Sequence record: MZ779063.1
Strand: one strand, 5' to 3'
Length of the DNA: 64,000 nucleotides
From: Staphylococcus phage vB_SauM-UFV_DC4
Below the pieces are notes generated by a model. The model saw only the letters and a program-made list of their open reading frames with translations. It was not told where the DNA came from and made no database searches. Position 1 is the stretch's first letter. Each line of letters opens with the position of its first letter. The position numbers and the translations under genes were made by a program. This document shows, piece after piece, positions 3,689-62,332 of this stretch.

Positions 3689-5917
3689 TTAGTCATCATA
3701 TTTATCTTTATATTCATAATAACTATCAAATTGAACTTCTAAACCTGAGAAAGCTGAAATGAATCCCATTCTACCTTCCATATTGATGTTTTCAATATCT
3801 TTAAAATCAACATCTGGTTTACGATAATTGAAATTCTTATTTTTATCTATAAATATTCTAATTCTATTTTCATTTTTAATAATCTTAATATACTTGTTAT
3901 TAATGTCTAATGGAACATGATTAGTTAAAAATAATTGTTTTTCTGATTCATCTTGGAATATTTCTTTAGGTTTTCCAAATACTTTATCAATTTCATAGAA
4001 ACCAGTTTTCATTATACGGTCAGGATCTTTCATAACATCTTCATCATTCAAATCAAAGTAAGGAACATCCCAATTTTCTTGTTGAGAAGCTATCCAAAGC
4101 ATATAACCTGAATTTAGTTGAGTATTATAATCAAATATAATTCCTGCTCCACCAGTTTTATTTTTATTAATTACTTTAAATGTCATAATATAATTTTTAG
4201 GGAATTTGAAATTTTGACTATACACATAGTTCAATGCGTCATCATCAAATTTAGTTGTTCCATCTATGAAACTAATATAACCATAATTACCTAATGATTG
4301 TTTAGATAAAGTTTTATTATAAAATCCGGTATAAGTTTGAGTTTCTACAGGAAATGTGCCATATGATCTTAATGCAACTATCATAGGATTAAAGTATATT
4401 CCTGATCTACTCTCATCATAGAAATAATCAGAATCATCTGGATTTTTAAGTGAATAATTATACTCCAATTCAACATTATACCAATCTTCTTTAGTTACGA
4501 TAAACGTATTATCGAATTCTTCATGACTAATTCCAGCTATTTCAAATTCATCTAAACTAACTTGAATTATTTCATTTGGATCAACGTCATCAACAAAATT
4601 TGTTAATTTGACTTCTATTTCCATTTTCTTAATATTTTTCATATTGTACATCATATGTTTAAGATATGATTTTTGACCTTGAGTATTATAATTTTTATTA
4701 TTTGAAGGGAATATATTTTCTACTTTTTTAACTTTACCTGTATTTGATGTTAATGTGATATCATAAACTAACTTAGCTGTAGGATGATTATTATCTTTAA
4801 AGTTAGTTGAATATCCCATATTAAAAGCAAAGAAATCATAATTTAATAAACGTTTAATATTCATTCTAGGATTTTCATTTTCATCATCTAAAGTTATTTT
4901 AACAAATGATGCAGAATTTTCATCTTCTTTATCAGATTTACTTAAAATATCTCCTTTAACTTCATATAAACCGGTTTCTTGATTAAAACTTACTGAAGAT
5001 AATCTTGTTGATTCAAGATTAGAATGACTTACATCTTCATCATTAGCTTTTCTTAAATCAAATATAGCTGTGGGTGCTTTAAATTGATAGTTCTCTGTAG
5101 CATTAATTACATTAAAACCTTTTCGGTCTGTTATTTTTAATTTAGATGTACCATTTTGTAAAGGTGCAAATAAATATTTCTCTCCTGGTTTAAAGTACAT
5201 TTTACCTTGAAATTTACGTGAAAAACTTTTTTTGTAAAATAGATGTGGTAAAGTTTTTAAACCATCATTATTAAGTGTAAATGGTTCTACTAAATCTTTA
5301 TTATTTGTATCAGGTCTATAGAATTTATGCTCATGAACTTCATGTCTTTCTCTTAGATATCTATCAGAAGTGATATTTTCTAATTTATCTTCAAAATCAG
5401 TTTCAGGTACAAACGGTATAATTCTAGGATCGTTATAACCCGGAGTAACTCTGCCTGATTTTTCTTCAGTACTTTTCATCATATGTTTAAAAATAGGTTT
5501 AGGATTATTCTCAGTGCCTAATATTTCATTTTCTTCATTAATAATCTTATTTAAATCATTAATGACAGTCTCTGGGAAAATTTTTACAGTATCTGTATTA
5601 AATTGATCTACTGTTTGCATATCATTAACAAAAAGTAAAAGATACCAAAGATCAGTAGTTCCATATAGCTCATTAGATAGATATTCAGGTCGATAGTGAT
5701 ATGATTTTGATAAGTCATAATCTATTAAATCTCTTTTAAGTACATTTTCATATTTTTTTAGTAATGGTAAACTAAAGACAGCTTGTTTTTCAAATAAATA
5801 CCATTCTGATATATTATTAAGTAATATTTTATTCGTCTTGGAGTATTCTATTTCATCAGACATTTCAGGTACATCATTTCTACCCATATTGTTATTTCCT
5901 ACGTCACGAATAAGCAA
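3689..5917 (-). CDS. large hypothetical protein (742 aa), possibly virion-associated
   Basis: long uninterrupted ORF; no catalytic motif recognised. Confidence 0.55.
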   Translation of the reverse strand: MLIRDVGNNNMGRNDVPEMSDEIEYSKTNKILLNNISEWYLFEKQAVFSLPLLKKYENVLKRDLIDYDLSKSYHYRPEYLSNELYGTTDLWYLLLFVNDMQTVDQFNTDTVKIFPETVINDLNKIINEENEILGTENNPKPIFKHMMKSTEEKSGRVTPGYNDPRIIPFVPETDFEDKLENITSDRYLRERHEVHEHKFYRPDTNNKDLVEPFTLNNDGLKTLPHLFYKKSFSRKFQGKMYFKPGEKYLFAPLQNGTSKLKITDRKGFNVINATENYQFKAPTAIFDLRKANDEDVSHSNLESTRLSSVSFNQETGLYEVKGDILSKSDKEDENSASFVKITLDDENENPRMNIKRLLNYDFFAFNMGYSTNFKDNNHPTAKLVYDITLTSNTGKVKKVENIFPSNNKNYNTQGQKSYLKHMMYNMKNIKKMEIEVKLTNFVDDVDPNEIIQVSLDEFEIAGISHEEFDNTFIVTKEDWYNVELEYNYSLKNPDDSDYFYDESRSGIYFNPMIVALRSYGTFPVETQTYTGFYNKTLSKQSLGNYGYISFIDGTTKFDDDALNYVYSQNFKFPKNYIMTFKVINKNKTGGAGIIFDYNTQLNSGYMLWIASQQENWDVPYFDLNDEDVMKDPDRIMKTGFYEIDKVFGKPKEIFQDESEKQLFLTNHVPLDINNKYIKIIKNENRIRIFIDKNKNFNYRKPDVDFKDIENINMEGRMGFISAFSGLEVQFDSYYEYKDKYDD

Positions 5918-15872: not shown

Positions 15873-16169
15873 TTATTTCATGCTGTCTAATTCAGCTAAT
15901 TTTAATTTAGCTTTAGTTGCATATTTTTGACGAATTATGTCACGCCATTTTTTACGAGCACGAGCAGCTTTTTGATATTTAAAATAGATTGGATCTTGAG
16001 CTTCTTTAGCTGCAACTAATGCTAATTGGTTTAATCTACGTTTACGTTTAGTACGTTCATCTAAACGCATGATATTTTGTTCACGTAAAAGAGCTTCATC
16101 AGTTGCTTGCATAATTTGCTCTTCTAGTGGAGTAATGTTATTTTTCATAATGGAAGATCTTCCTTTCAA
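15873..16169 (-). CDS. small basic (K/R-rich) protein, lone minus-strand gene
   Basis: 98 aa; GGAAG RBS; basic stretch KRKRRLNQ...ARARKKWRDIIRQKYATKAK. Confidence 0.5.
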   Translation of the reverse strand: MKGRSSIMKNNITPLEEQIMQATDEALLREQNIMRLDERTKRKRRLNQLALVAAKEAQDPIYFKYQKAARARKKWRDIIRQKYATKAKLKLAELDSMK

Positions 16170-19698: not shown

Positions 19699-21210
19699 AT
19701 GAAAATAGATATGATCAACGTTGATCAAATTATTACAGCCTATGAAGCTAAAGAAGTTACCAATCCTATTTTCTTTGATTCAGGAACTTTACCTAAAGAA
19801 GACGGTTTATTCTCATATGAAATATTTGGTTTAATAGGTACTGATGAAAGAAAGAATAATGTGGGTTGGATTAATTTAGGTGGTAAATACTTAAATCCTG
19901 TAGCTTATAAAGCTATGAAAGAATTAGATAAGAATATCGATTTATGTATTCAAGGATCTGATTACTTTAAAATTGAAAAAGGACAATTAGTTCCAGATGA
20001 AAATGGTGAAACTGGATTAAATTTCCTATACGATAATTATGAAAATCTTAAATTTAGAAAAAATGATTCTCGTATCCGAAATGAAAAAATTGATATGCTT
20101 AAAAACACTCCTAAAGATAGAATATTCACAGATAAATGGTTAGTTATTCCTGCTTTCTATCGTGACTTTAACCCTAATGAAACTTCAGGAGAAATTCAAG
20201 ATACTGAAGAAATAAATGATATGTATGCGAGTATTTTAAGATCTGTAGATTCAATTAGTTTTAACTCATTTGATTTTGTAGCTAATACGACTAAATATAA
20301 TATTCAAAATAAATTATTTGAAATATACGTTAAATTAACTTCAGGTGAACTATCAGGTAAAACTGGTATGATGCAAAGAAATATTTTAGGTAAGACAGTA
20401 GATAATAGTACTCGTTCAGTTATTTCATCACCTAAAATCAATTCAAATAAATGGAATGAAATGCAAATTGAATTCGGTCAATTAGGTGTTCCATTAACTC
20501 AATTAGTAACATTGTTCTTACCTTTCTTTAGTAAATATATTATAGACTTTATTGAAATTCATAAAGATGCTTTCCAAACTGCTACTGGAACTGATGAAAA
20601 GGAATTAACATTAGAAGAAGTATATGAACAATTTGATGATAAATCTATTAAGAATATGTTAGAATACTTTATTAAAGACCCTAATGAAAGATTTAGTCCT
20701 ATATATGTAAATGATAGACAAGGTAAACGTCATAAAGTTAAATTATTTGAAAATACTTTAGGTAGAACTTTTACTGTAATTGATTTACTTTATATAGCTG
20801 CTACAGAAATATGTGAAGATAAGTATGTAGTTTATTCAAGATATCCTATTGAAAATTTCTTGAATGTGGCTCCTGCTAAAATTAAAATACTAACTACAGT
20901 TGATACAATTCCAGAAATTACTTTAGATGATATTGTACTTAAAGATTATCCTAAAGTTGTTCATGAATATCCTGTTGATGAAGATGTATTTATAGATACT
21001 GCTATTATACACAACAGTTATGCCGGAGCACTTGGTGCAGATTTTGACGGTGATATGATCTCTATTAGATCTTTATGGACAGTTGAAGCTAATAAAGAAG
21101 CTAATAAACTTCTTAATAAGAAAACTAACTATCTAAACTACACTGGTAATTCAGTACGTAATTTGGGTAACGAATCGGTACAAGCTTTATATTCATTAAC
21201 TAAAGAATAA
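19699..21210 (+). CDS. RNA polymerase beta-prime subunit, N-terminal-half homolog
   Basis: EDGLFSYEIFG matches the beta-prime DGLFCxxIFGP region; GADFDGDM catalytic Mg motif (nt 21040-21054); no Zn-finger cysteines. Confidence 0.7.
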   Translation: MKIDMINVDQIITAYEAKEVTNPIFFDSGTLPKEDGLFSYEIFGLIGTDERKNNVGWINLGGKYLNPVAYKAMKELDKNIDLCIQGSDYFKIEKGQLVPDENGETGLNFLYDNYENLKFRKNDSRIRNEKIDMLKNTPKDRIFTDKWLVIPAFYRDFNPNETSGEIQDTEEINDMYASILRSVDSISFNSFDFVANTTKYNIQNKLFEIYVKLTSGELSGKTGMMQRNILGKTVDNSTRSVISSPKINSNKWNEMQIEFGQLGVPLTQLVTLFLPFFSKYIIDFIEIHKDAFQTATGTDEKELTLEEVYEQFDDKSIKNMLEYFIKDPNERFSPIYVNDRQGKRHKVKLFENTLGRTFTVIDLLYIAATEICEDKYVVYSRYPIENFLNVAPAKIKILTTVDTIPEITLDDIVLKDYPKVVHEYPVDEDVFIDTAIIHNSYAGALGADFDGDMISIRSLWTVEANKEANKLLNKKTNYLNYTGNSVRNLGNESVQALYSLTKE

Positions 21211-21355: not shown

Positions 21356-21655
21356 ATGAATGAAATTAAAATAATGGATACTGAACTACTACAGGAAGCT
21401 GTAGAAGGAAAAGAGAATAACGGTGGAGGTTACGAACATACTCGTACCGTTTTCGAATTCCAAGGAAAACAAGGAGTTTTCGAAGACACTTCTTGTGGTG
21501 ATTTCGGTAGCAGATTCTTCATGGAATGGGATGGAAAAATGGCTATGTGGGGAAGTATGATTGATGAAGAACTCGAATACAGTGAATTCGATGAACAAGA
21601 ACAATCAGAACTTCTAAAGTATTTTAGAGTTCCTGTTTTTGAAGAAACAATCTAG
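21356..21655 (+). CDS. small acidic protein (99 aa); GC and codon usage atypical for this genome
   Basis: E/D-rich; C-ending codons (TTC, AAC, GGT) unlike its neighbours; own promoter box and own terminator. Confidence 0.5.
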   Translation: MNEIKIMDTELLQEAVEGKENNGGGYEHTRTVFEFQGKQGVFEDTSCGDFGSRFFMEWDGKMAMWGSMIDEELEYSEFDEQEQSELLKYFRVPVFEETI

Positions 21656-51042: not shown

Positions 51043-52713
51043 TTATTCTGTAGCTTCTTCTTCTGGAGATTCTTCTACTTGTGAAGTAGAAATATTAATA
51101 TTAATATCTTTACTTATACTGTCAGAAATAACATTAACTTTAGCAGTTCCTGCAGCTTTAGCAGTCACGAGTCCATCGTTATTAACTGAAGCAAATTCAG
51201 AACCTTCAGTAATAGAATAACTTACAGGGTTTCCTTTAGGATCTGTAGTTACATTTAATTGTTGAGTTTCATTGTCTTTCATATCAATACTATCAGGAGT
51301 AACTGTTAGACTTTTAGTCTTTACTCTAGTTACATTAACATTAACTGTCTTACTAATAGAATCAGAACTTACTTTAACTTTAGCAGTTCCTACAGTTTTA
51401 GCAGTTACAAGACCACTATCATTAACTGAAGCAAATTCAGATCCTTCAGTAATAGAATAACTTACATTGTTTGTAGATGGTTGAATTTTAACGTCTAACT
51501 GTTGAGTTGATTCTGCATCTATGTTAACTTCTTCTGGAGTAACAGTTAGACTTTTAGTCTTTAAACGACTTACATTAACTTCTACATTTTTAGAAACATT
51601 GTCTGATTTAACTGTCACATTTGCAGTTCCTTCAGAAATACCAGTAATATTTCCTTTATTATCTAATGAAGCAAATTCAGAACCGTCTTTTAATTCAAAG
51701 CTTACTTTTCTTCCTTCAGGTTCAGTAGTAACTTCTAATTTTTGAGTTTCTTCTGCTTCAATATTAACTGTCTCTGGAGTAACAGTTAAGCTTTTAGTTT
51801 GATTGATACTTTCAAATTTTCCGTTTTTAGGATTATAAACGGAATATTCAATTTTTTTATCAATTTCGTTTTGTACTGTTTCTTCACTTAATATGCGAAT
51901 ATTGAAATTAACAATATTATCTTGAATACTTCTCTCATGTACTTTAACTAAGACTTCACCAGTTTTACTAAAGAATAATAAACGATTTTTATCTGATTGG
52001 TATCTAGCATAACTTTCATCACTAATATTTACAGATAATAATTGTAAAAGGTTTTCTTTAGCTACAGGAGTAACTTCTTTAGTATCGAAATCTTTATAAC
52101 CTAAGATTTTATCTAAAGGTAAAACAGATTCTTTAAGAACGTTAATATCTTGTTGTAATTGAACAAGACGTCCTGTAAATTTACCGTATTCTTTAACTTT
52201 AATAAAGATTGAATCTTTAACACGTTCAAAGATATTTTTATGTCCTTCAGAAATAGCAATATCATACTTTTCTGAAGCATCTTTAGGGAAGTATAATTTA
52301 AGTTCATATTCTTCATTAACTTCTAAATCAGAAGTAGGTAAACTTAAAATTTCAGATTTAACATCTTTAGCAGTATAAGTTTTAACTACAGACTTATCTG
52401 AAAGTTTGATTAAGTCAAATTTTAATAATCCCAATACATCACGAGCATCTACAGGATTAATATAGAAAGGTACATTAATAAACTTACCAGTTTCTCCTTC
52501 AGATTTGAAGTAAACTGTTCTTCTATCATATTTAATTTTACCAGTTTCAGGAAGAGGTTGAACATCAGTAACAGTCCAACCAGCTTGTTTTAAGCTAGCT
52601 AGATCATTACTAGAAAGAATAACGTTTTCACGAGGTCCACGTTCACCTAAACCTAAAAATGGAATTAATTTTTCATCTAATAATTTTACTTTAAAGTAGT
52701 TAGTAGTAGCCAT
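51043..52713 (-). CDS. virion structural protein with three C-terminal Big_2 (bacterial Ig-like) repeats
   Basis: three roughly 79-aa repeats TKSLTVTPE...GSEFAS...GTAKV(N/K)V.SD (nt 51085-51798). Confidence 0.6.
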   Translation of the reverse strand: MATTNYFKVKLLDEKLIPFLGLGERGPRENVILSSNDLASLKQAGWTVTDVQPLPETGKIKYDRRTVYFKSEGETGKFINVPFYINPVDARDVLGLLKFDLIKLSDKSVVKTYTAKDVKSEILSLPTSDLEVNEEYELKLYFPKDASEKYDIAISEGHKNIFERVKDSIFIKVKEYGKFTGRLVQLQQDINVLKESVLPLDKILGYKDFDTKEVTPVAKENLLQLLSVNISDESYARYQSDKNRLLFFSKTGEVLVKVHERSIQDNIVNFNIRILSEETVQNEIDKKIEYSVYNPKNGKFESINQTKSLTVTPETVNIEAEETQKLEVTTEPEGRKVSFELKDGSEFASLDNKGNITGISEGTANVTVKSDNVSKNVEVNVSRLKTKSLTVTPEEVNIDAESTQQLDVKIQPSTNNVSYSITEGSEFASVNDSGLVTAKTVGTAKVKVSSDSISKTVNVNVTRVKTKSLTVTPDSIDMKDNETQQLNVTTDPKGNPVSYSITEGSEFASVNNDGLVTAKAAGTAKVNVISDSISKDININISTSQVEESPEEEATE

Positions 52714-52736
52714 TCTTAGAATTCACTTTCCTTTCT

Positions 52737-53288
52737 TTATTTTTCTAATAGTAAATCAATTAAATCTTGTTTACGAGCATTTTTATTATACTCAATTCCT
52801 TTAGAATCTAATTCTTCTTTAAGCTCAGCTACAGTGAATTCATTTAAATCTTCTTCTGTAACCTCAACTTCTTCAGAATCTTTTTCTTCTACTTTCTTAT
52901 CTTCTTTTTCATCGATAGTAGAAGCTTCTTCTTCAGAACTTTGTTCTTCTTTAGTTTCTTCTTTTACTTCGTCTGATACTTCGCTATCTGTTCCTTCATC
53001 CACTTGCTTCTCTTTGCTGCTGCTTTGTTTTTCTTGTGATTGCGTATCATTTGATTCAGAAACTGTTTCATTTTTATCTTCACTTTTATCTTCTTTTTTA
53101 TTTGATTTATCGCTTGGATATACATAGTCTTCATCAACAATTGTTACTTGTAAACCTAAACGTCTAAATAAACGAATTTGTGAACCTGAAGCACGGAAAG
53201 GTTTAACAAAAGGACCTTTACCTTTACCAGGTACAAATGCTTTTTCATTAATAATAATGAAATTATTATCTTCATTGAAATTTAACAT
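52737..53288 (-). CDS. acidic protein with C-terminal SAP/Rho-N-like helix-extension-helix motif
   Basis: C-terminal FTVAELKEELDSKGIEYNKNARKQDLIDLLL; central S/E/K-rich acidic region; N-terminal VPGKGKGPFVKP motif shared with the tail fibre. Confidence 0.45.
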   Translation of the reverse strand: MLNFNEDNNFIIINEKAFVPGKGKGPFVKPFRASGSQIRLFRRLGLQVTIVDEDYVYPSDKSNKKEDKSEDKNETVSESNDTQSQEKQSSSKEKQVDEGTDSEVSDEVKEETKEEQSSEEEASTIDEKEDKKVEEKDSEEVEVTEEDLNEFTVAELKEELDSKGIEYNKNARKQDLIDLLLEK

Positions 53289-53331
53289 AAATTAGTAATC
53301 TCCTTTACCATATTTTATTTTATAAATAAAA

Positions 53332-53365
53332 GTTAAGGAAGGATCTTATAAAAATCCTTCTTAAC
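53332..53365 (-). terminator. hairpin terminator overlapping the CHAP lysin stop
   Basis: GTTAAGGAAGGATC...(GA)TCCTTCTTAAC inverted repeat. Confidence 0.45.
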
Positions 53366-54158
53366 TAAATGTTCCCCATGCGTTACCAATACGTTGTCCT
53401 TTACCATTTGATTTACCAATTGGCACGTATACATATTGTCCCTTAAATTTACCTGAAACCCAGATAAGACCATCAAAGTCTTGGATTTCTTCGTATTTAA
53501 TAGAGTCGCCTTTTTTCATGAATGGACCTGTAGGCCATCCAGTCCATGGACCATTTTTACGAGTAATAATTCCTGAAGCAACATTACATTTGAAAGTAGC
53601 TTTTTCAGTTTTCCATAGAATACCTGCTGAATTACGTTTCCATTTAGCAGATGTAACAGCTTTCTTAGGAGCTGCTTTCTTAACTACTTTTTTCTTAGGA
53701 GCTGCTTTCTTAGTAGTTGCTTTTTTAGTAGCTGTACTACTAAAGGCTGGACGAATTACTCCCCAAAATCCTGTATAATCATGGAATACTTTAGCTGCAG
53801 GTGAACCATTGCTACCTGCGTTAAACCAGTTTTGGTCAACTGAATAGAAATTGTTTAAGTTAGCTGAAGTAATAATACCTGTATGACCATAAACATCATA
53901 TGGAGGATTAGCCCAAATAGCTATATCTCCTGGTTGAGGTAAGAATGATGGAGTATTTTTAATAAGTTTCCATCCTGAAGGCATTGTATTATCTTTAAGA
54001 TCTTTAGCATTACCCCAAGGCCAGAATTTTCCATCAGTTAAATAGTGACAATAACCAATAGTCAAATCCATACATTGAGCACCATAAGCTCCATCCATGT
54101 CAAGTCTACGACCAATACGATTATTAACCCAATTCAAAGCTTGAGTTTTAGTTTTCAT
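53361..54158 (-). CDS. endolysin: CHAP peptidase plus SH3b (SH3_5) cell-wall-binding domain
   Basis: CHAP motifs GAYGAQCMDL and YGHTGII; K/T/A-rich linker; C-terminal SH3_5-like WKRNSAGILWKTEKATFKC...GKFKGQYVYVP. Confidence 0.8.
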   Translation of the reverse strand: MKTKTQALNWVNNRIGRRLDMDGAYGAQCMDLTIGYCHYLTDGKFWPWGNAKDLKDNTMPSGWKLIKNTPSFLPQPGDIAIWANPPYDVYGHTGIITSANLNNFYSVDQNWFNAGSNGSPAAKVFHDYTGFWGVIRPAFSSTATKKATTKKAAPKKKVVKKAAPKKAVTSAKWKRNSAGILWKTEKATFKCNVASGIITRKNGPWTGWPTGPFMKKGDSIKYEEIQDFDGLIWVSGKFKGQYVYVPIGKSNGKGQRIGNAWGTFS

Positions 54159-54256
54159 ATTTTATTCAAACCCTTTCGATAATTTTTATTTATTTCTTTA
54201 TATTTAGTTGTTCTTTTATAAAAATAATATGTTTCATAATAGTATAAAAATATATA

Positions 54257-54287
54257 CCCTAACGAATCTTTAATATGATCGTTAGGG
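54257..54287 (-). terminator. hairpin between the two lysin genes
   Basis: CCCTAACGA...TCGTTAGGG inverted repeat. Confidence 0.45.
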
Positions 54288-54323
54288 TATATAAAATTAT
54301 AATTTAAATTATAGAATCATTTA

Positions 54324-55274
54324 TTAGCTAAATGTTCCCCATGCTGGACCAATACGTTTACCGTTACCATTTGATTTACCCACTGGTACGTATACATATT
54401 GTCCCTTAAATTTACCTGAAACCCAAATATATCCGTTAAAATCTTGGATTTCATCATATTTAATAGTGTCACCTTTAGACATACGAGGACCTTGAGGCCA
54501 TCCAGTCCATGGACCATTTTTACGAGTAATAATTCCTACAGATACACCACATTTGAAAGTAGCTTTTTCAGTTTTCCATAGAATACCTGCTGAATTACGT
54601 TTCCAAGTAGTTGAAGTTTCAGTACTTGTTTTCTTAGGTTTAGCAGGTGCTTTAGTTGTAGTAGTAGATTTAGTCGCTGTTGAAGTTTTAGCTGTAGAAG
54701 TAGCACCATTTTTCATATAAGCTAGAACCTTTTTATCTACATTAGAAACACTACGAGACATACCGCATGCAGCTAATAAGTTACCTGGATCTTGTTTGTC
54801 TGCTTGAATATCTTGATGACCTGGCATATTTGTACTTGCATTAACTTTATATTCTTTACATAAGAAAGCAAGAATACGACAATAGTTATCAAATGATTTT
54901 AATGAACGACTTCTATTAGAGAAGTAACATCCTTCAACACCAATAGCACCGTCATTAGCATCAATACCATACCAAGCATTATCAGTTGGTGTATTATACA
55001 TAACATGCCATGCTTTTTCATCTAAAGGAACACAAATAATACATTCTTTATCATCAACAAAAATATGAGCTGATGCTGTATAGTTCCAATCGATATTATA
55101 TGAATTACGATAGTAATCAACATTATTTTGAGCTGTTGTGTTAGGGTTTCCTGTGTCATGAGCAACAATAAATTTAGGTCCGTTAAGCTTATCTCCAGCT
55201 CTACGAGTACCTATTGGTAAAAAATCAGTATAAACAGGAACACCGTTCCATGTACCGATATGTTTTTTAGCCAT
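54324..55274 (-). CDS. endolysin: N-acetylmuramoyl-L-alanine amidase (Amidase_2/PGRP) plus SH3b (SH3_5)
   Basis: Amidase_2-like N-terminus (KFIVAHDTGNPNTTAQNNVDYY...); T/S/K linker; C-terminal SH3_5 module about 80% identical to that of the CHAP lysin. Confidence 0.8.
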   Translation of the reverse strand: MAKKHIGTWNGVPVYTDFLPIGTRRAGDKLNGPKFIVAHDTGNPNTTAQNNVDYYRNSYNIDWNYTASAHIFVDDKECIICVPLDEKAWHVMYNTPTDNAWYGIDANDGAIGVEGCYFSNRSRSLKSFDNYCRILAFLCKEYKVNASTNMPGHQDIQADKQDPGNLLAACGMSRSVSNVDKKVLAYMKNGATSTAKTSTATKSTTTTKAPAKPKKTSTETSTTWKRNSAGILWKTEKATFKCGVSVGIITRKNGPWTGWPQGPRMSKGDTIKYDEIQDFNGYIWVSGKFKGQYVYVPVGKSNGNGKRIGPAWGTFS

Positions 55275-55342
55275 AAAAAATTTCCTCCTTGATATTTATA
55301 TTACTAATTAAAGTAATTTCTATATTTAAGTGTTCTATATTT

Positions 55343-57691
55343 TTAATACTTGATTTCTGTAGATACGATTAATTTATTTTGATATCTTCCACCTCTAGTA
55401 TAAACTTTACTATCAGCGTCACCTACATTAATACTATTTTCAGATCCATAACCTATACATTCATCTAAGAATAAATTACCTCCTGATGAAGCTTGGAAGT
55501 CTTTTCCTTGATAACTTTCAAATGCGATACATCCTAAATTCCACGATTGTGTACCTTCATTTACATCAGCTACATTACCTCCATCATTTCTTCCATATAT
55601 ACCATTTATTCTAATGATTTTTAAACCTTCATGAGTAGTTGATCCGTTATTTGATTTAACGCCATTCAATCCTTTATCAGTTCCATTATCCATTCCTATA
55701 CAATTAATTTCTATTATATTAGGTTTAGAACCATCAGCTCCAATATGGTAATTTAAACCGTCAAAACTATTATAATTACCTTTACAGCTATCAAGAATAA
55801 TATCTTTTCCACCAACAATAGCAAGACCATTGTAATTTGAAGCAGAATGATAAAAATTACATTTCTTAAAGAATGCACTATTATTTGAAGTTAAATTCAA
55901 TTCAACACAGTTTCTTCCACCATATATATTTAAATTTTCAAAATATATATTCGAAGCTAGACTTGTTAACTGTATATTTGAAGAAGATATTAAAGGTATT
56001 ACATTACTATTTGAAGGTTTATTATCATTAATATTTGAATAAACTTTAGTACCATCAGTAAACCATGAATTAGGCGTGCTTTCAACTTCATCAATACTAT
56101 TTACTTTCTTTATATCAATACTATTATCTAGAGTTACAACTTTATCGGTAGAAGATCTACTAAATTCATAAGTTCTATTTTTATCAGAAGTTAGTGTCCA
56201 TGAAGGTTCATCAGCCATAATAATATTCACATTATTACCTGTACCTATTATATTAATACTCTTATTAAATGCTTTTGTAATTAATGTACCGCCTATTCTA
56301 AAATAGTTACCATCAGCAACCATAATTGTATCATTATCATTGACTTTAGGTATTGCTACTTTAAAAGATTTAAATGGTTTTTCATTAGATAAACCGTCAT
56401 TAGAATCATTGCCATTAACAGAATCTAAATAGTAGGTAGTTCCACCTGTAAGTCTATTAACGGTTATATCATATTTTACATCAAAAGTGCCTTTTCCATC
56501 AGTAACAATTCTATTTTTTAATATTTCATTACCATAATTGAAATCATTAGGTTTTCTAACTGTTATTGGAAGTGTAGGTGCATAATTACCATCAAGACCG
56601 GGTAAACCTTGTAGACCTTGACTTCCAATTTGTCCAGTATCCCCTTTTTCACCTTTTAATCCATTTAACTGTTCTTCAGTAAAATCAGAGTACTCGAAAG
56701 GATTTCCTTTTTCACCTTTTAATAGATCTAATTGTTCTTGAGTAAAATCAGAATATTCAAAAGGGTCACCTTTTTCACCTTTTAACTCAGATAACTGTTC
56801 TTGAGTAAAATCAGAGTACTCGAAAGGATCTCCTTTTAATCCATTTAACTGCTCTTCAGTAAAATCAGAGTATTTGAAGGGGTCGCCTTTAGGACCTTGC
56901 ATACCTGGATCACCTTTATACATCTCAGCATTTTCTACCATGTAATTCTTAAGATTTTCTTTATAATCTAATAATTTATTTTCAAAATCTTCTATTTTAC
57001 TGTTAAATGAATCTTGTGCTAATTTTAATTCTTCAGATTTATCTTTTATGAGATTTAATTTTTCTTCAACTTTAACTACATCATTTTCCATATTCTTAAC
57101 ATAGTTTGTAGTCTCACTAAGTTTTTCCATTTCATCATTAAGACTCATTGTATTGTTATAATTACTATTGAATTGTTCTCTTACAGTTTCAAAATCAGAT
57201 AGAGTATTTTTCATATTACTCAATTTGTTATTCATATCTTCTATTGTTGAAATTACTTCTTCTTTTTCAGATTTTAAATCTAATTTTTTATCTTCAATAC
57301 TATATTTAAAACTATCTAGCTCACTCAAATATGAATTAAGATTATCATCATCAATTAAATTTTCTTTGATTAAGTTAAGTTTTTCTCCTGCTTTTTCATT
57401 AATATTATTTATATCAGTAGATATTATTTTTATTTGTTTAAAAGCTTCATTCACTTGAAGATATTTCTGTTTTATAAAATCTTCAATAGAGAAATAATCA
57501 GCTACGTCATATTCTCCATCTGAATTTAAATCAACATATTCATTTTTATTTACCTTTACATATTGAATATTCATTAAATCATAATAATCTAATGTATTTC
57601 TATCAACATAATAAGGTTTATTTATAGGTCCCATACCTTTACCTGGAATATAAGTTTTTTGAGGAACTATAATTAGTATACTATCTTCCAT
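55343..57691 (-). CDS. tail fibre / receptor-binding protein with collagen-like region and beta-helix (pectin-lyase-like) C-terminal domain
   Basis: 4x 21-aa tandem repeat [21 protein letters not shown] plus Gly-X-Y triplets (nt 56588-56920); C-terminal N/G/S/T-rich region typical of parallel beta-helices. Confidence 0.6.
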
Positions 57692-59816: not shown

Positions 59817-61085
59817 TTATTTTCTAAAAGTTCCTTCAATACTATCTTTAATAATAAATAATATACATGGAAGTAATACATAATCTTCCATATTCATATC
59901 ATATTTATCATCATAGTAATTAAACACTTTACTTAATATTTTTTCTTCTATCTTTTCATCATTCATATACATTGAGACTAATTTATATCTATCATCAAAG
60001 TAAGTTAAACTTTTAGTGCCTTGATAGTCTTCATTAACTTCATTGATCTTAGTTAAATTACTTAACTCTATAAAATCATTTAATCCATCTAATACTTTAG
60101 TATCTTCTATACTTTTATGAACGAAGCTTATTTCTTTATACTTCTCTCTAAACATTTTTAAGAAATTATCCTTAGTGTCGTTAAGAGTAATAACATTAGG
60201 TAAAGTCTTTTTATCCTTTAATTTTTCATATAGAGAGAATTTATAATTCTTTTGATTTATTCTTTCATTCTTAGGATTTTTATCTTTATAAGGTAATATA
60301 TTAGAAAGATAAGTACTAGATTTTACTAATAGATTATTGTCATAAATAAATCTGGATAAATTCAAATCAATATATTTAGTTGATGCGACTGCACTAAATT
60401 CATCTTCATAGTAAATAAAAGTATTTAATGAAGAATTATAGAAATGATCAATAAATATTTGTGAAAATTCATCAGCGTATTTAATGCTATGATTGACTTG
60501 ATAGAAATCTTCTTCTAGTATCAATGATTTATTATCTGTTCCAATATTGGAAAATACTGTTCTATATACGTTTGATACCTGATTTTCAATATCTTCTGTA
60601 TTAACATTAAAATTCTGATATTGTATTTTATAGTAAGCGGAATTCTCTAATGAACTCATTTCTACATTAGTTACACGATATATTCTACTAGTTGCATTTT
60701 CTTTAGACTGATATTGAAATACAATAAAATCATCTGGTAAAGGTTCAATAGTACCTGGCAATATAACTGCTTCAGATTCTAAATCTTTTTCAGTTCCCCA
60801 TTCCTCATCCCATTCAATTGTAGGATTCATTTCAGCTACATTATATAAAGGGAAGTCTTTTAATTTATTATATTTCAAAGGAGAATTATCTCCAATAATT
60901 TCTTCAACATTATCTAGTGAACGATCAGAAGTAGATTTCTCATGATCTTTACTATAGTATGTAACAAAACTAGGAGCTCCTGCTTGAAACTTACTATATT
61001 TTTCTGTACCGGATAAATATGAGGATACGTAACTATTTACAATATCTTTTGGTTGTAATTCATCATTTGATATAAATGTACCCAT
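59817..61085 (-). CDS. hypothetical protein (422 aa), possibly structural
   Basis: ORF with AGGAG-like RBS. Confidence 0.5.
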   Translation of the reverse strand: MGTFISNDELQPKDIVNSYVSSYLSGTEKYSKFQAGAPSFVTYYSKDHEKSTSDRSLDNVEEIIGDNSPLKYNKLKDFPLYNVAEMNPTIEWDEEWGTEKDLESEAVILPGTIEPLPDDFIVFQYQSKENATSRIYRVTNVEMSSLENSAYYKIQYQNFNVNTEDIENQVSNVYRTVFSNIGTDNKSLILEEDFYQVNHSIKYADEFSQIFIDHFYNSSLNTFIYYEDEFSAVASTKYIDLNLSRFIYDNNLLVKSSTYLSNILPYKDKNPKNERINQKNYKFSLYEKLKDKKTLPNVITLNDTKDNFLKMFREKYKEISFVHKSIEDTKVLDGLNDFIELSNLTKINEVNEDYQGTKSLTYFDDRYKLVSMYMNDEKIEEKILSKVFNYYDDKYDMNMEDYVLLPCILFIIKDSIEGTFRK

Positions 61086-61771: not shown

Positions 61772-62332
61772 TTAGTTTAATTTAAATTCCTCATCTAATA
61801 TTTTTTCTAAATTTTCAATAACTTTATCATCTTCATCAATTTCAGGTTTCTTATCAGGAGCTTTCTTGAAGATAGATACAAATTTATTTCCATTACTTTG
61901 AACCCATTTTTGTGCTTCTTTGAAACGATCTGCAACTATTCCAATAGGTATTCTTCGAATTTTATCTTTACCTTTATATTTAACAGGTACTTCTAAAGCA
62001 GCGTTTTTACCACCAGTACGTTTGGCCACTACTACAATATTGCTTGAATCAATTCTAATACCATTACTTTTAGCTTTTATTTTAAAATTCATACAAGCTT
62101 TAGCAAAATCCGCTTCAAGCGTATCAGGTTCAACAATTCCTTCTTGAACTGCAATATCCGAAGTATTACCGCAATCTTCACATACTAATTGACCTGATTC
62201 ATTTGGAGACATTTTAGAACCACATTCTTCACAAATAGGCTCTTCTTTATCAGTATCAATATCACGATTTAATTCTTCATTAACTAAACCAAATTCTTTA
62301 TCTAAAGATTCTTCTAAAGATTTAAAATCCAT
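61772..62332 (-). CDS. zinc-ribbon protein, paralog of 61221-61730 and related to 57871-59796
   Basis: N-terminal MDFKSLEESLDKEFGL; CEECGSKMSPNESGQLVCEDCG zinc ribbon. Confidence 0.5.
   Translation of the reverse strand: MDFKSLEESLDKEFGLVNEELNRDIDTDKEEPICEECGSKMSPNESGQLVCEDCGNTSDIAVQEGIVEPDTLEADFAKACMNFKIKAKSNGIRIDSSNIVVVAKRTGGKNAALEVPVKYKGKDKIRRIPIGIVADRFKEAQKWVQSNGNKFVSIFKKAPDKKPEIDEDDKVIENLEKILDEEFKLN

Follow-up and report, generated by a model that had tools for sequence, protein, structure and literature searches.

Two adjacent lysin genes on the minus strand of the Staphylococcus phage vB_SauM-UFV_DC4 genome (hereafter, DC4), located within a 64,000-nt stretch of sequence record MZ779063.1 (hereafter, the window), each combine one catalytic domain (Amidase_2 or CHAP) with their own copy of an SH3_5 (SH3b) cell-wall-binding domain (CBD). 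The pair is very probably the bipartite endolysin already described for AR9-like Staphylococcus jumbo phages of the S6/PALS2/DC4 group, expressed as two independent late genes. It has been reported before for DC4 itself and tested by experiment in relatives: the two-gene arrangement, which a sequence-only reading of the same DNA had set apart from the fused lysins typical of staphylococcal phages, is published for DC4 and its relatives (PMC10638138, PMC7982418, PMC9096886, PMC11498662, PMC6507118). New here are a codon-position account of the raised guanine-cytosine (GC) content, an apparent mosaic origin of the pair as opposed to gene fission, putative concerted evolution between the SH3b copies, and conserved candidate signals for late promoters and terminators. 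The published papers are silent on SH3b copy similarity, gene conversion, the codon-position basis of GC content, and the promoter/terminator layout, and a literature search found no published report of SH3b gene conversion in this locus.

The amidase gene (54324-55274, minus strand, 316 amino acids [aa]) is UFVDC4_00061 and is orthologous to S6_ORF94, PALS2_240, and SA1 lys211. Its product comprises the Amidase_2 catalytic domain (54711-55274, aa 1-188; Pfam stretch 33-165), a Thr/Ser/Ala-rich linker identified from the translation (54606-54710, aa 189-223), and SH3b copy A (54327-54605, aa 224-316), and a ribosome-binding site (RBS) AAGGAGG, read from the sequence and annotated as an RBS in the Madawaska record, lies at 55284-55290 on the same strand. 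The CHAP gene (53361-54158, minus strand, 265 aa) is UFVDC4_00060, orthologous to S6_ORF93, PALS2_239, and SA1 lys210, and encodes the CHAP catalytic domain (53739-54158, aa 1-140), a Lys/Ala/Pro-rich linker (53643-53738, aa 141-172), and SH3b copy C (53364-53642, aa 173-265). The two open reading frames (ORFs) are separated by a 165-nt spacer, and each has its own start codon, RBS, and stop codon. Part of the CHAP linker derives from imperfect 30-nt tandem repeats (tandem-repeat family D2, 53661-53735), in which three imperfect, partly overlapping units encode a KKAAPKK-type peptide; across relatives, the CHAP protein ranges from 260 to 278 aa and the linker varies in length.

A hidden Markov model search of both genes against Pfam, as the sequence-only reading had proposed, returned all four domains with scores well above the family cut-offs, and the claim that CHAP and Amidase_2 occupy separate minus-strand genes, each with its own SH3_5 domain, held. 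CHAP (PF05257) was matched in the 265-aa protein with 48.0 bits (cut-off 26, residues 22-110), Amidase_2 (PF01510) in the 316-aa protein with 68.6 bits (cut-off 26, residues 33-165, profile positions 5-131 of 131), and SH3_5, also known as SH3b_P1 (PF08460), with 55.8 bits in the CHAP protein and 54.3 bits in the amidase protein (cut-off 22). Neither C-terminal module matched SH3b_P2 or SH3b_T at E <= 0.01, and both matched the SH3b domains of 7aqh, ALE-1, and lysostaphin in a sequence search of the PDB (copy A to 7aqh: E 2.5e-22).

Neither of the outcomes that the sequence-only reading had named as refuting it was observed: both modules belong to one SH3b family, and both genes retain catalytic residues, those of the amidase being putative assignments. 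The CHAP motifs QC29MDL and YGH92TG each align with their counterparts in the solved endolysins 8h1i and 6ist, and the CHAP protein is collinear over its full length with the two-domain endolysin 8h1i (E 2.6e-43, residues 1-265 vs. 1-250). Among 16 CHAP homologues, H92, Q109, and N110 are invariant and C29 is nearly so, and all of 18 diverse amidase homologues have H39, Y54, E114, H153, K160, and D162. By the T7-lysozyme pattern, H39, H153, and D162 are putative zinc ligands of the amidase, with Y54, K160, and E114 as candidate catalytic residues. The Amidase_2-SH3_5 enzyme would be expected to cut the MurNAc-L-Ala bond and the CHAP-SH3_5 enzyme to act as a D-Ala-Gly endopeptidase or an amidase, and the SH3b module of each would carry that enzyme to the staphylococcal wall.

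To place the gene pair among its relatives, we compared 12 loci, comprising nine published jumbo phages and the divergent contigs L010, L011, and L012. Phages S6, PALS_2, and Madawaska, AR9-like jumbo phages with genomes of about 265 kb, share 98.3%, 98.0%, and 97.5% identity with the region, respectively. The CHAP gene has 98.9% identity to its S6 and PALS_2 counterparts (tblastn), and the amidase protein matches that of S6 at 98%. In the nine published phages and in L010, the amidase gene is followed by the CHAP gene and then by the HeH-domain gene. Contig L011 carries the amidase gene and then the CHAP gene, at which point the contig ends; in L012, the CHAP and HeH genes follow a 5'-truncated ORF whose C-terminus matches the SH3b domain of the amidase gene. 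The gene table of DC4 lists UFVDC4_00060 (53361-54158, minus strand, 265 aa, "Endolysin") and UFVDC4_00061 (54324-55274, minus strand, 316 aa), with CHAP and SH3 domains called in the former and amidase_2 and SH3 domains in the latter (PMC10638138). Because these coordinates equal those found here, the window corresponds to the beginning of the DC4 genome. Identical Pfam architectures were reported for PALS2_239/240 in 2021 (PMC7982418), SA1 lys210 (CHAP-SH3) and lys211 (amidase_2-SH3) were expressed and each killed staphylococci (PMC9096886), and S6_ORF93 lysed nine Staphylococcus strains and had its linker examined by deletion (PMC11498662). A survey of 205 staphylococcal phages recognized "two genes adjacent" as one of four endolysin organizations, present in nine phages (PMC6507118); the pair studied here has this organization, with two complete neighboring lysin ORFs, no intron, and conservation in 12 loci. 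The value of the pair for annotation is small: the genes, their domains, and lysis by orthologues are published, and engineering of the enzymes as antimicrobials is already under way.

Comparison of the two SH3b modules revealed that copies A and C are identical at 79 of 93 residues (85%, E 3e-55) and that their DNA forms a 300-nt direct repeat of 85% identity (53346-53645 and 54309-54608). The sequence-only reading had put protein identity at about 80%; the duplication and the DNA homology that it described stand, and the figure does not. The repeat spans the SH3b coding part plus about 15 nt beyond the stop codon and ends at the SH3b boundary, and the linkers of the two genes are not homologous. 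Only these two copies exist in the 64-kb window, without a third. The nearest relative of each copy is the other one (85% vs. at most 61% outside the jumbo group); because the copies are each other's closest relatives, a duplication of the module within this phage lineage is supported.

If this duplication simply predated all of the lineages compared, the SH3b copies would be expected to group by gene, which they do not. Contigs L010 and L011 served as outgroups (catalytic domains 72-80% identical to those of the window vs. at least 89% within the core clade). In the neighbor-joining (NJ) tree, the core-clade paralogues cluster together with all four L010/L011 copies outside (bootstrap 87%), and the split expected under pure orthology received 1.8% bootstrap support. 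In quartet comparisons, we counted by-genome sites, at which the copies are identical within one genome and differ between genomes, along with by-gene sites and a homoplasy control. By-genome sites exceeded the control in the comparison of the window with L011 (26 by-genome, 4 control, 3 by-gene; p < 1e-4), L010 (19, 3, and 9; p 0.0004), Machias (10, 1, and 9; p 0.006), and SA1 (9, 1, and 10; p 0.011), and fell mostly at third codon positions. The synonymous divergence (dS) between the SH3b paralogues of the window is 0.265, whereas orthologous catalytic domains differ by 0.87-0.94 from SA1 and by 0.66-1.34 from L010/L011. The paralogues have a nonsynonymous divergence (dN) of about 0.11, with fixed paralogue-specific residues at SH3b positions 20, 22-23, 59, 75, 81-83, and 87.

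The best reading of these patterns is that repeated gene conversion homogenizes the SH3b copies, with selection or short tracts keeping a few differences. On balance, we lean towards concerted evolution that is still ongoing in the lysis locus, in which conversion between the 279-nt direct repeats would erase synonymous divergence and selection would keep the paralogue-specific residues. The expectation of the sequence-only reading that the repeat is a substrate for recombination was borne out by the quartet, tree, and dS evidence, with conversion as the outcome seen. It had also held that recombination could delete or invert the interval. Deletion is possible; inversion between the repeats is excluded because both copies lie on the same strand in the same orientation, and direct repeats can recombine to delete or convert, not to invert. 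No deletion variant (amidase fused to a hybrid SH3b, with CHAP lost) was found among the 12 loci. That homologous recombination acts in this locus while the CHAP gene is retained hints at a need for both enzymes. If concerted evolution is true, each binding module could be adapted to the catalytic domain that it accompanies or to a wall epitope slightly unlike that of the other module, and the pair would contradict a recent proposal that SH3_5 (SH3b_P1) modules function only in lysins with two catalytic domains. The paralogue-specific positions then provide a short test list for binding specificity in chimeric anti-staphylococcal lysins.

The flanks of both genes carry conserved signals that point to two separate late expression units. 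Between the genes, a hairpin with the core CCUAACG...CGUUAGG, followed by a U-rich tract (54243-54301, minus strand), forms a terminator-like structure at the end of the amidase transcript. A hairpin had been claimed at 54257-54287, and the perfect palindrome CCTAACG...CGTTAGG was found at 54258-54286; it occurs nowhere else in the window and did not arise in any of 100 shuffles, and it has extended arms at 54243-54265 and 54279-54301. As a 99-nt RNA, the region folds with a free energy (dG) of -27.3 kcal/mol (z = -6.5), and none of 200 shuffles folded as well. The hairpin is kept in all seven lineages compared (dG -17 to -23 kcal/mol), most of which have the U-rich tract after it, and its flanks covary (e.g., UACCC/GGGUA, GUCC/GGAC, AACC/GGUU), including a change from CG to CA in L010 that is paired with TG. 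A second, intrinsic-terminator-like hairpin with a T tract follows the CHAP gene (53338-53360, minus strand; scan match GAAGGATTTTTATAAGATCCTTC then CTTAACTTTT) and shows compensatory changes in relatives. In GenBank, both hairpins are annotated as terminators in Madawaska and Machias, and the intergenic one in MarsHill.

Upstream of each gene we found a candidate late promoter of the AR9 type. In AR9, the late-promoter consensus A(-11)ACA-N6-T(A/G)(+1) is read by the non-virion RNA polymerase (PMC5449584). The candidate of the amidase gene (55321-55335, minus strand; GAACACTTAAATATA) consists of AACA (55334-55331), six bases, and TA, with a predicted start at about 55323; that of the CHAP gene (54199-54213, minus strand; GAACAACTAAATATA) has AACA at 54212-54209 and a predicted start at about 54201. 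Exact matches to GAACANNTAAATATA occur twice in the 64 kb, one ahead of each lysin gene. In all 12 loci, each of the two genes is preceded by AACA-N6-TA at a distance of 37-60 nt (24/24 cases), and the motif before the amidase gene persists where the upstream neighbor of that gene differs between phages. In the spacer, GAACA...TA is the only invariant block 3' of the hairpin (alignment columns G114-A118 and T125/A126). We propose that the phage non-virion RNA polymerase would transcribe each lysin gene from its own AACA-N6-TA promoter, and that the amidase transcript would stop at the intergenic hairpin. The motifs are candidate late promoters for a phage group without a defined one. A search for host-type sigma-70 promoters was uninformative (10 found vs. 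14.2 expected from shuffles). AACA-N6-T(A/T) also occurs 45-75 nt upstream of the genes 3689-5887 (minus), 15873-16148 (minus), 19699-21210 (plus), 59817-61085 (minus), and 61772-62332 (minus), and the motifs of these five genes, together with the two lysin candidates, could serve as a starting set for modeling the late promoters of Staphylococcus jumbo phages.

Several points weigh against parts of this account. AACA-N6-TW is short, with a chance density of about 0.94 per kb per strand, so promoter use is a prediction from a motif that is common by chance; upstream of the genes of the window it was found 13 times in about 7.2 kb vs. about 6.8 expected, a weak general enrichment, and Korn et al. 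recovered no late-promoter motif in MarsHill with MEME. A simple terminator scan missed the intergenic hairpin, whose loop and interrupted U tract fall outside the rules of the scan. The bond specificities given above follow from family membership. The evidence for conversion comes from 93 codons, and lineage-specific shifts in codon bias could contribute some of the parallel synonymous changes. A permutation test for conversion tracts (longest run of matching polymorphic sites) was marginal (p = 0.03-0.04, uncorrected, in four of nine genomes); therefore, the conversion claim relies on the quartet, tree, and dS results. Moreover, no holin gene is adjacent to the lysin genes, and the DC4 paper places the holin about 150 kb away (PMC10638138).

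The GC content of the region is raised, as the sequence-only reading had claimed: 1-kb bins at 53-55 kb reached 0.33 and 0.32, compared to 0.245 for the whole window, and the two lysin genes (0.361 and 0.347) rank second and third among 60 called ORFs. This excess had been read as a sign of acquisition from a conventional Staphylococcus phage, which the split by codon position contradicts. GC at the second codon position (GC2) is 0.466 in the CHAP gene and 0.464 in the amidase gene, the highest values in the window (mean 0.230, 60 ORFs). At the third position (GC3), the CHAP gene has 0.184 and the amidase gene 0.145, close to the mean of the 60 ORFs (0.130, standard deviation 0.030) and below the 0.22-0.29 found in lysin genes of the conventional staphylococcal phages SA11, IME-SA4, and Fi4S2. 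About 47% of the residues in each lysin protein are G, A, P, T, S, W, R, or C. Because the excess lies at the second position and GC3 is near background, the GC excess mirrors protein composition and not recent import, and the raw GC content should not be taken as a sign of horizontal transfer; no more than a weak residual GC3 signal exists in the CHAP gene and the SH3b copies (0.17-0.20). This provides a caution for genome scans, given that in a genome with 24% GC a local peak can come purely from amino-acid composition. The sole clear GC3 outlier of the window (0.27; overall GC 0.367) is a 99-aa acidic ORF at 21356-21655 (plus strand), which has no Pfam match and makes a stronger case for recent acquisition than the lysin genes do.

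These results bear on the idea that a conventional three-domain lysin was recently imported, hence the high GC, and was then duplicated, with each copy losing one catalytic domain. We regard this scenario as unlikely, even though the GC content is highest here among the large genes of the window, the SH3b copies are paralogues, and domain loss is plausible for the CHAP gene: compared to the PHROG family phrog_635 (463 positions), the CHAP-SH3b protein has its best stretch at 4-172 and a second stretch that also matches, so both ends are present and the central region of the family is missing. Besides the GC3 values, the identities of the individual domains do not fit. The closest relatives of the CHAP domain outside the jumbo group (53-60%) are metagenomic proteins with CHAP only or with CHAP plus SH3_3 and/or ricin-type (RicinB) domains. 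Three-domain lysins (P0005-P0030) are 42-51% identical to the window modules in CHAP and 51-61% in SH3b (the closest, P0005 of S. saprophyticus: 51% and 53%), but carry another amidase type that is 22-25% identical to the window amidase with non-significant E-values, or does not match. The amidase domain itself is 66-73% identical to the amidases of staphylococcal and Macrococcus phage or prophage lysins, and its relatives (60-73%) bear other binding domains (SH3b_P2 or SH3b_T) and distant CHAP domains (27-44%). The window order, amidase before CHAP, is the reverse of the fused CHAP-Amidase_2-SH3b form, the linkers are unrelated, and the repeat extends beyond SH3b by only about 15 nt on the 3' side. 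Similarity to all three modules was seen in no three-domain lysin, leaving simple fission unsupported; the domain-by-domain identities reject a single three-domain ancestor, and the module relatives trace to different lysins, contrary to the duplication and domain loss proposed in the sequence-only reading. We infer that the gene pair is a mosaic. The CHAP gene would be related to phrog_635 without its central amidase, and the amidase gene would be a bimodular amidase of the phrog_833/SA11 gp171 kind, given that the full amidase protein aligns collinearly with bimodular phrog_833 (positions 3-293) and its SH3b matches phrog_635 positions 343-463. One SH3b module would then have been copied onto the other gene, and the copies would thereafter have been repeatedly homogenized by gene conversion, with a few paralogue-specific residues persisting.

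Two further alternatives concern the function and the integrity of the genes. One of the proteins might be a virion-associated peptidoglycan hydrolase used for entry, which would fit a position between the tail-fiber gene (55343-57691, UFVDC4_00062) and the immunoglobulin-like (Ig-like) structural gene (51043-52713, UFVDC4_00059), both of whose products appear in the DC4 virion table. A further match of the CHAP protein is to phrog_759, annotated 'tail associated cell-wall hydrolase' (E 4e-34), and the remote holin agrees with a virion role. However, no peptides of SA1 ORF210/ORF211 are present in a published virion mass-spectrometry set of 52 proteins, and UFVDC4_00060/00061 are absent from the published DC4 virion table, a shallow proteome of 15 proteins. 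Both proteins are small with a C-terminal CBD, a typical endolysin build, their best PHROG and PDB matches are endolysins, and these phages encode separate tail lysins (PMC10638138). Absence from two virion proteomes, the endolysin-type build, and the lytic activity of orthologues therefore favor endolysins over virion lysins, and a virion role appears very unlikely. The other alternative, an intron-split lysin in which the two ORFs are exons of one gene with a self-splicing intron or its remnant between them (as in phage K, Twort, and other SH3_5-bearing lysins), is hardly credible. It draws on the frequency of interrupted lysin genes in staphylococcal phages (20 of 205; PMC6507118) and on a 2025 preprint whose data set held no strictly bimodular SH3_5 lysins. 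Against it, each ORF has a complete CBD in addition to its own start codon, RBS, and stop codon, the spacer carries a terminator-like hairpin and a promoter-like motif, and splicing of amidase-CBD followed by CHAP-CBD is unable to rebuild CHAP-Amidase-SH3b. Rfam detected no intron or other family in 52500-56000 at E <= 1, and the separate orthologous proteins are active in vitro.

The neighboring genes show structural variation of their own. The slot upstream of the amidase gene is occupied by a 3420-nt fiber gene in Madawaska, by the 2349-nt tail-fiber gene (minus strand) in DC4, and by several small ORFs instead in LY01, AH12, Machias, PB50, and SA1. The DC4 tail-fiber gene contains four tandem repeats of about 21 aa that include (E/Q)EQL..LKGEK, followed by a collagen-like GXY stretch. 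The tail fiber and the HeH protein (52737-53288, minus strand) share an N-terminal motif, VPGKGKGPFVKPF in the HeH protein (33% identity over the first 67 residues), which may be a common attachment or assembly module, and the Ig-like protein has only a faint version of it. Among close relatives, the Ig-like gene (Big_2 x3, minus strand) ranges from 1431 nt (S6) to 1929 nt (LY01), probably because Big_2 repeat units have been gained and lost. The direction of transcription changes near 51 kb: genes up to 50988 are on the plus strand and those from 51043 onward on the minus strand, and both GC skew and AT skew change sign there.

Compared to known systems, the three-domain CHAP-Amidase_2-SH3_5 lysins of the LysK/phi11 type (phrog_635; P0005-P0030 from S. 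saprophyticus and Mammaliicoccus) have the same CHAP and SH3_5 types and share the C-terminal motif PIGxSNGxGQR(I/V)GxAWGTFS. They differ in having one polypeptide with one CBD, and their central Amidase_2 is not significantly similar to that of the window. The podophage CHAP-SH3b endolysins (P68, 44AHJD, SAP-2, GRCS group; structures 8h1i and 8xyf) include 8h1i, which is collinear with the CHAP protein over the full length and has the QCMDL and YGH active-site motifs as well; however, identity to the podophage genes is low (about 35%, tblastn), the jumbo-phage linker is about 15 residues longer and lysine-rich, and podophages have a single lysin gene without an amidase partner. With regard to expression, the late promoters of AR9 (5'-AACA-N6-T(A/G)-3'; PMC5449584, PMC5312081) have a motif and spacing identical to those upstream of both lysin genes, and Staphylococcus jumbo phages encode AR9-like RNA polymerase subunits, but promoter use in the latter is predicted from the motif.

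The orthologous pairs DC4_00060/00061, S6_ORF93/ORF94, PALS2_239/240, SA1 lys210/lys211, and MarsHill gp152/gp153 represent the same genes, with identical coordinates for DC4 and 80-99% protein identity for the others; they share domain calls (PMC7982418, PMC9096886, PMC10638138), tandem order, hairpin, and promoter motif without material difference. Outside this group, the Silviavirus SA11 (Herelleviridae), a conventional myophage, which falls in the 'two genes adjacent' class (PMC6507118), has the same design and order in gp171/gp172, i.e., adjacent Amidase_2-CBD and CHAP-CBD genes. Its CBD is duplicated as well (copies 59% identical), and its amidase domain is 68% identical to that of the window. 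In contrast, the CBD of SA11 is SH3b_P2 (PF25606) and not SH3_5, its CHAP is only 30% identical, its genes are 13 nt apart with no hairpin, and its holin gene lies directly upstream of the lysins, whereas the holin is remote in the jumbo phages. The SA11 pair (L014, 1498-3187) consists of gp171 (Amidase_2-SH3b_P2) adjoining gp172 (CHAP-SH3b_P2), and phage Fi4S2 (L015, 2501-5159) has the same gene pair with small ORFs between, including an AP2-domain gene. Because SA11 shares the two-gene design, the design arose or spread more than once, and the Amidase_2-SH3b_P2 and CHAP-SH3b_P2 pairs of SA11 and Fi4S2 show that neighboring lysin genes with duplicate copies of one binding domain are a recurrent design.

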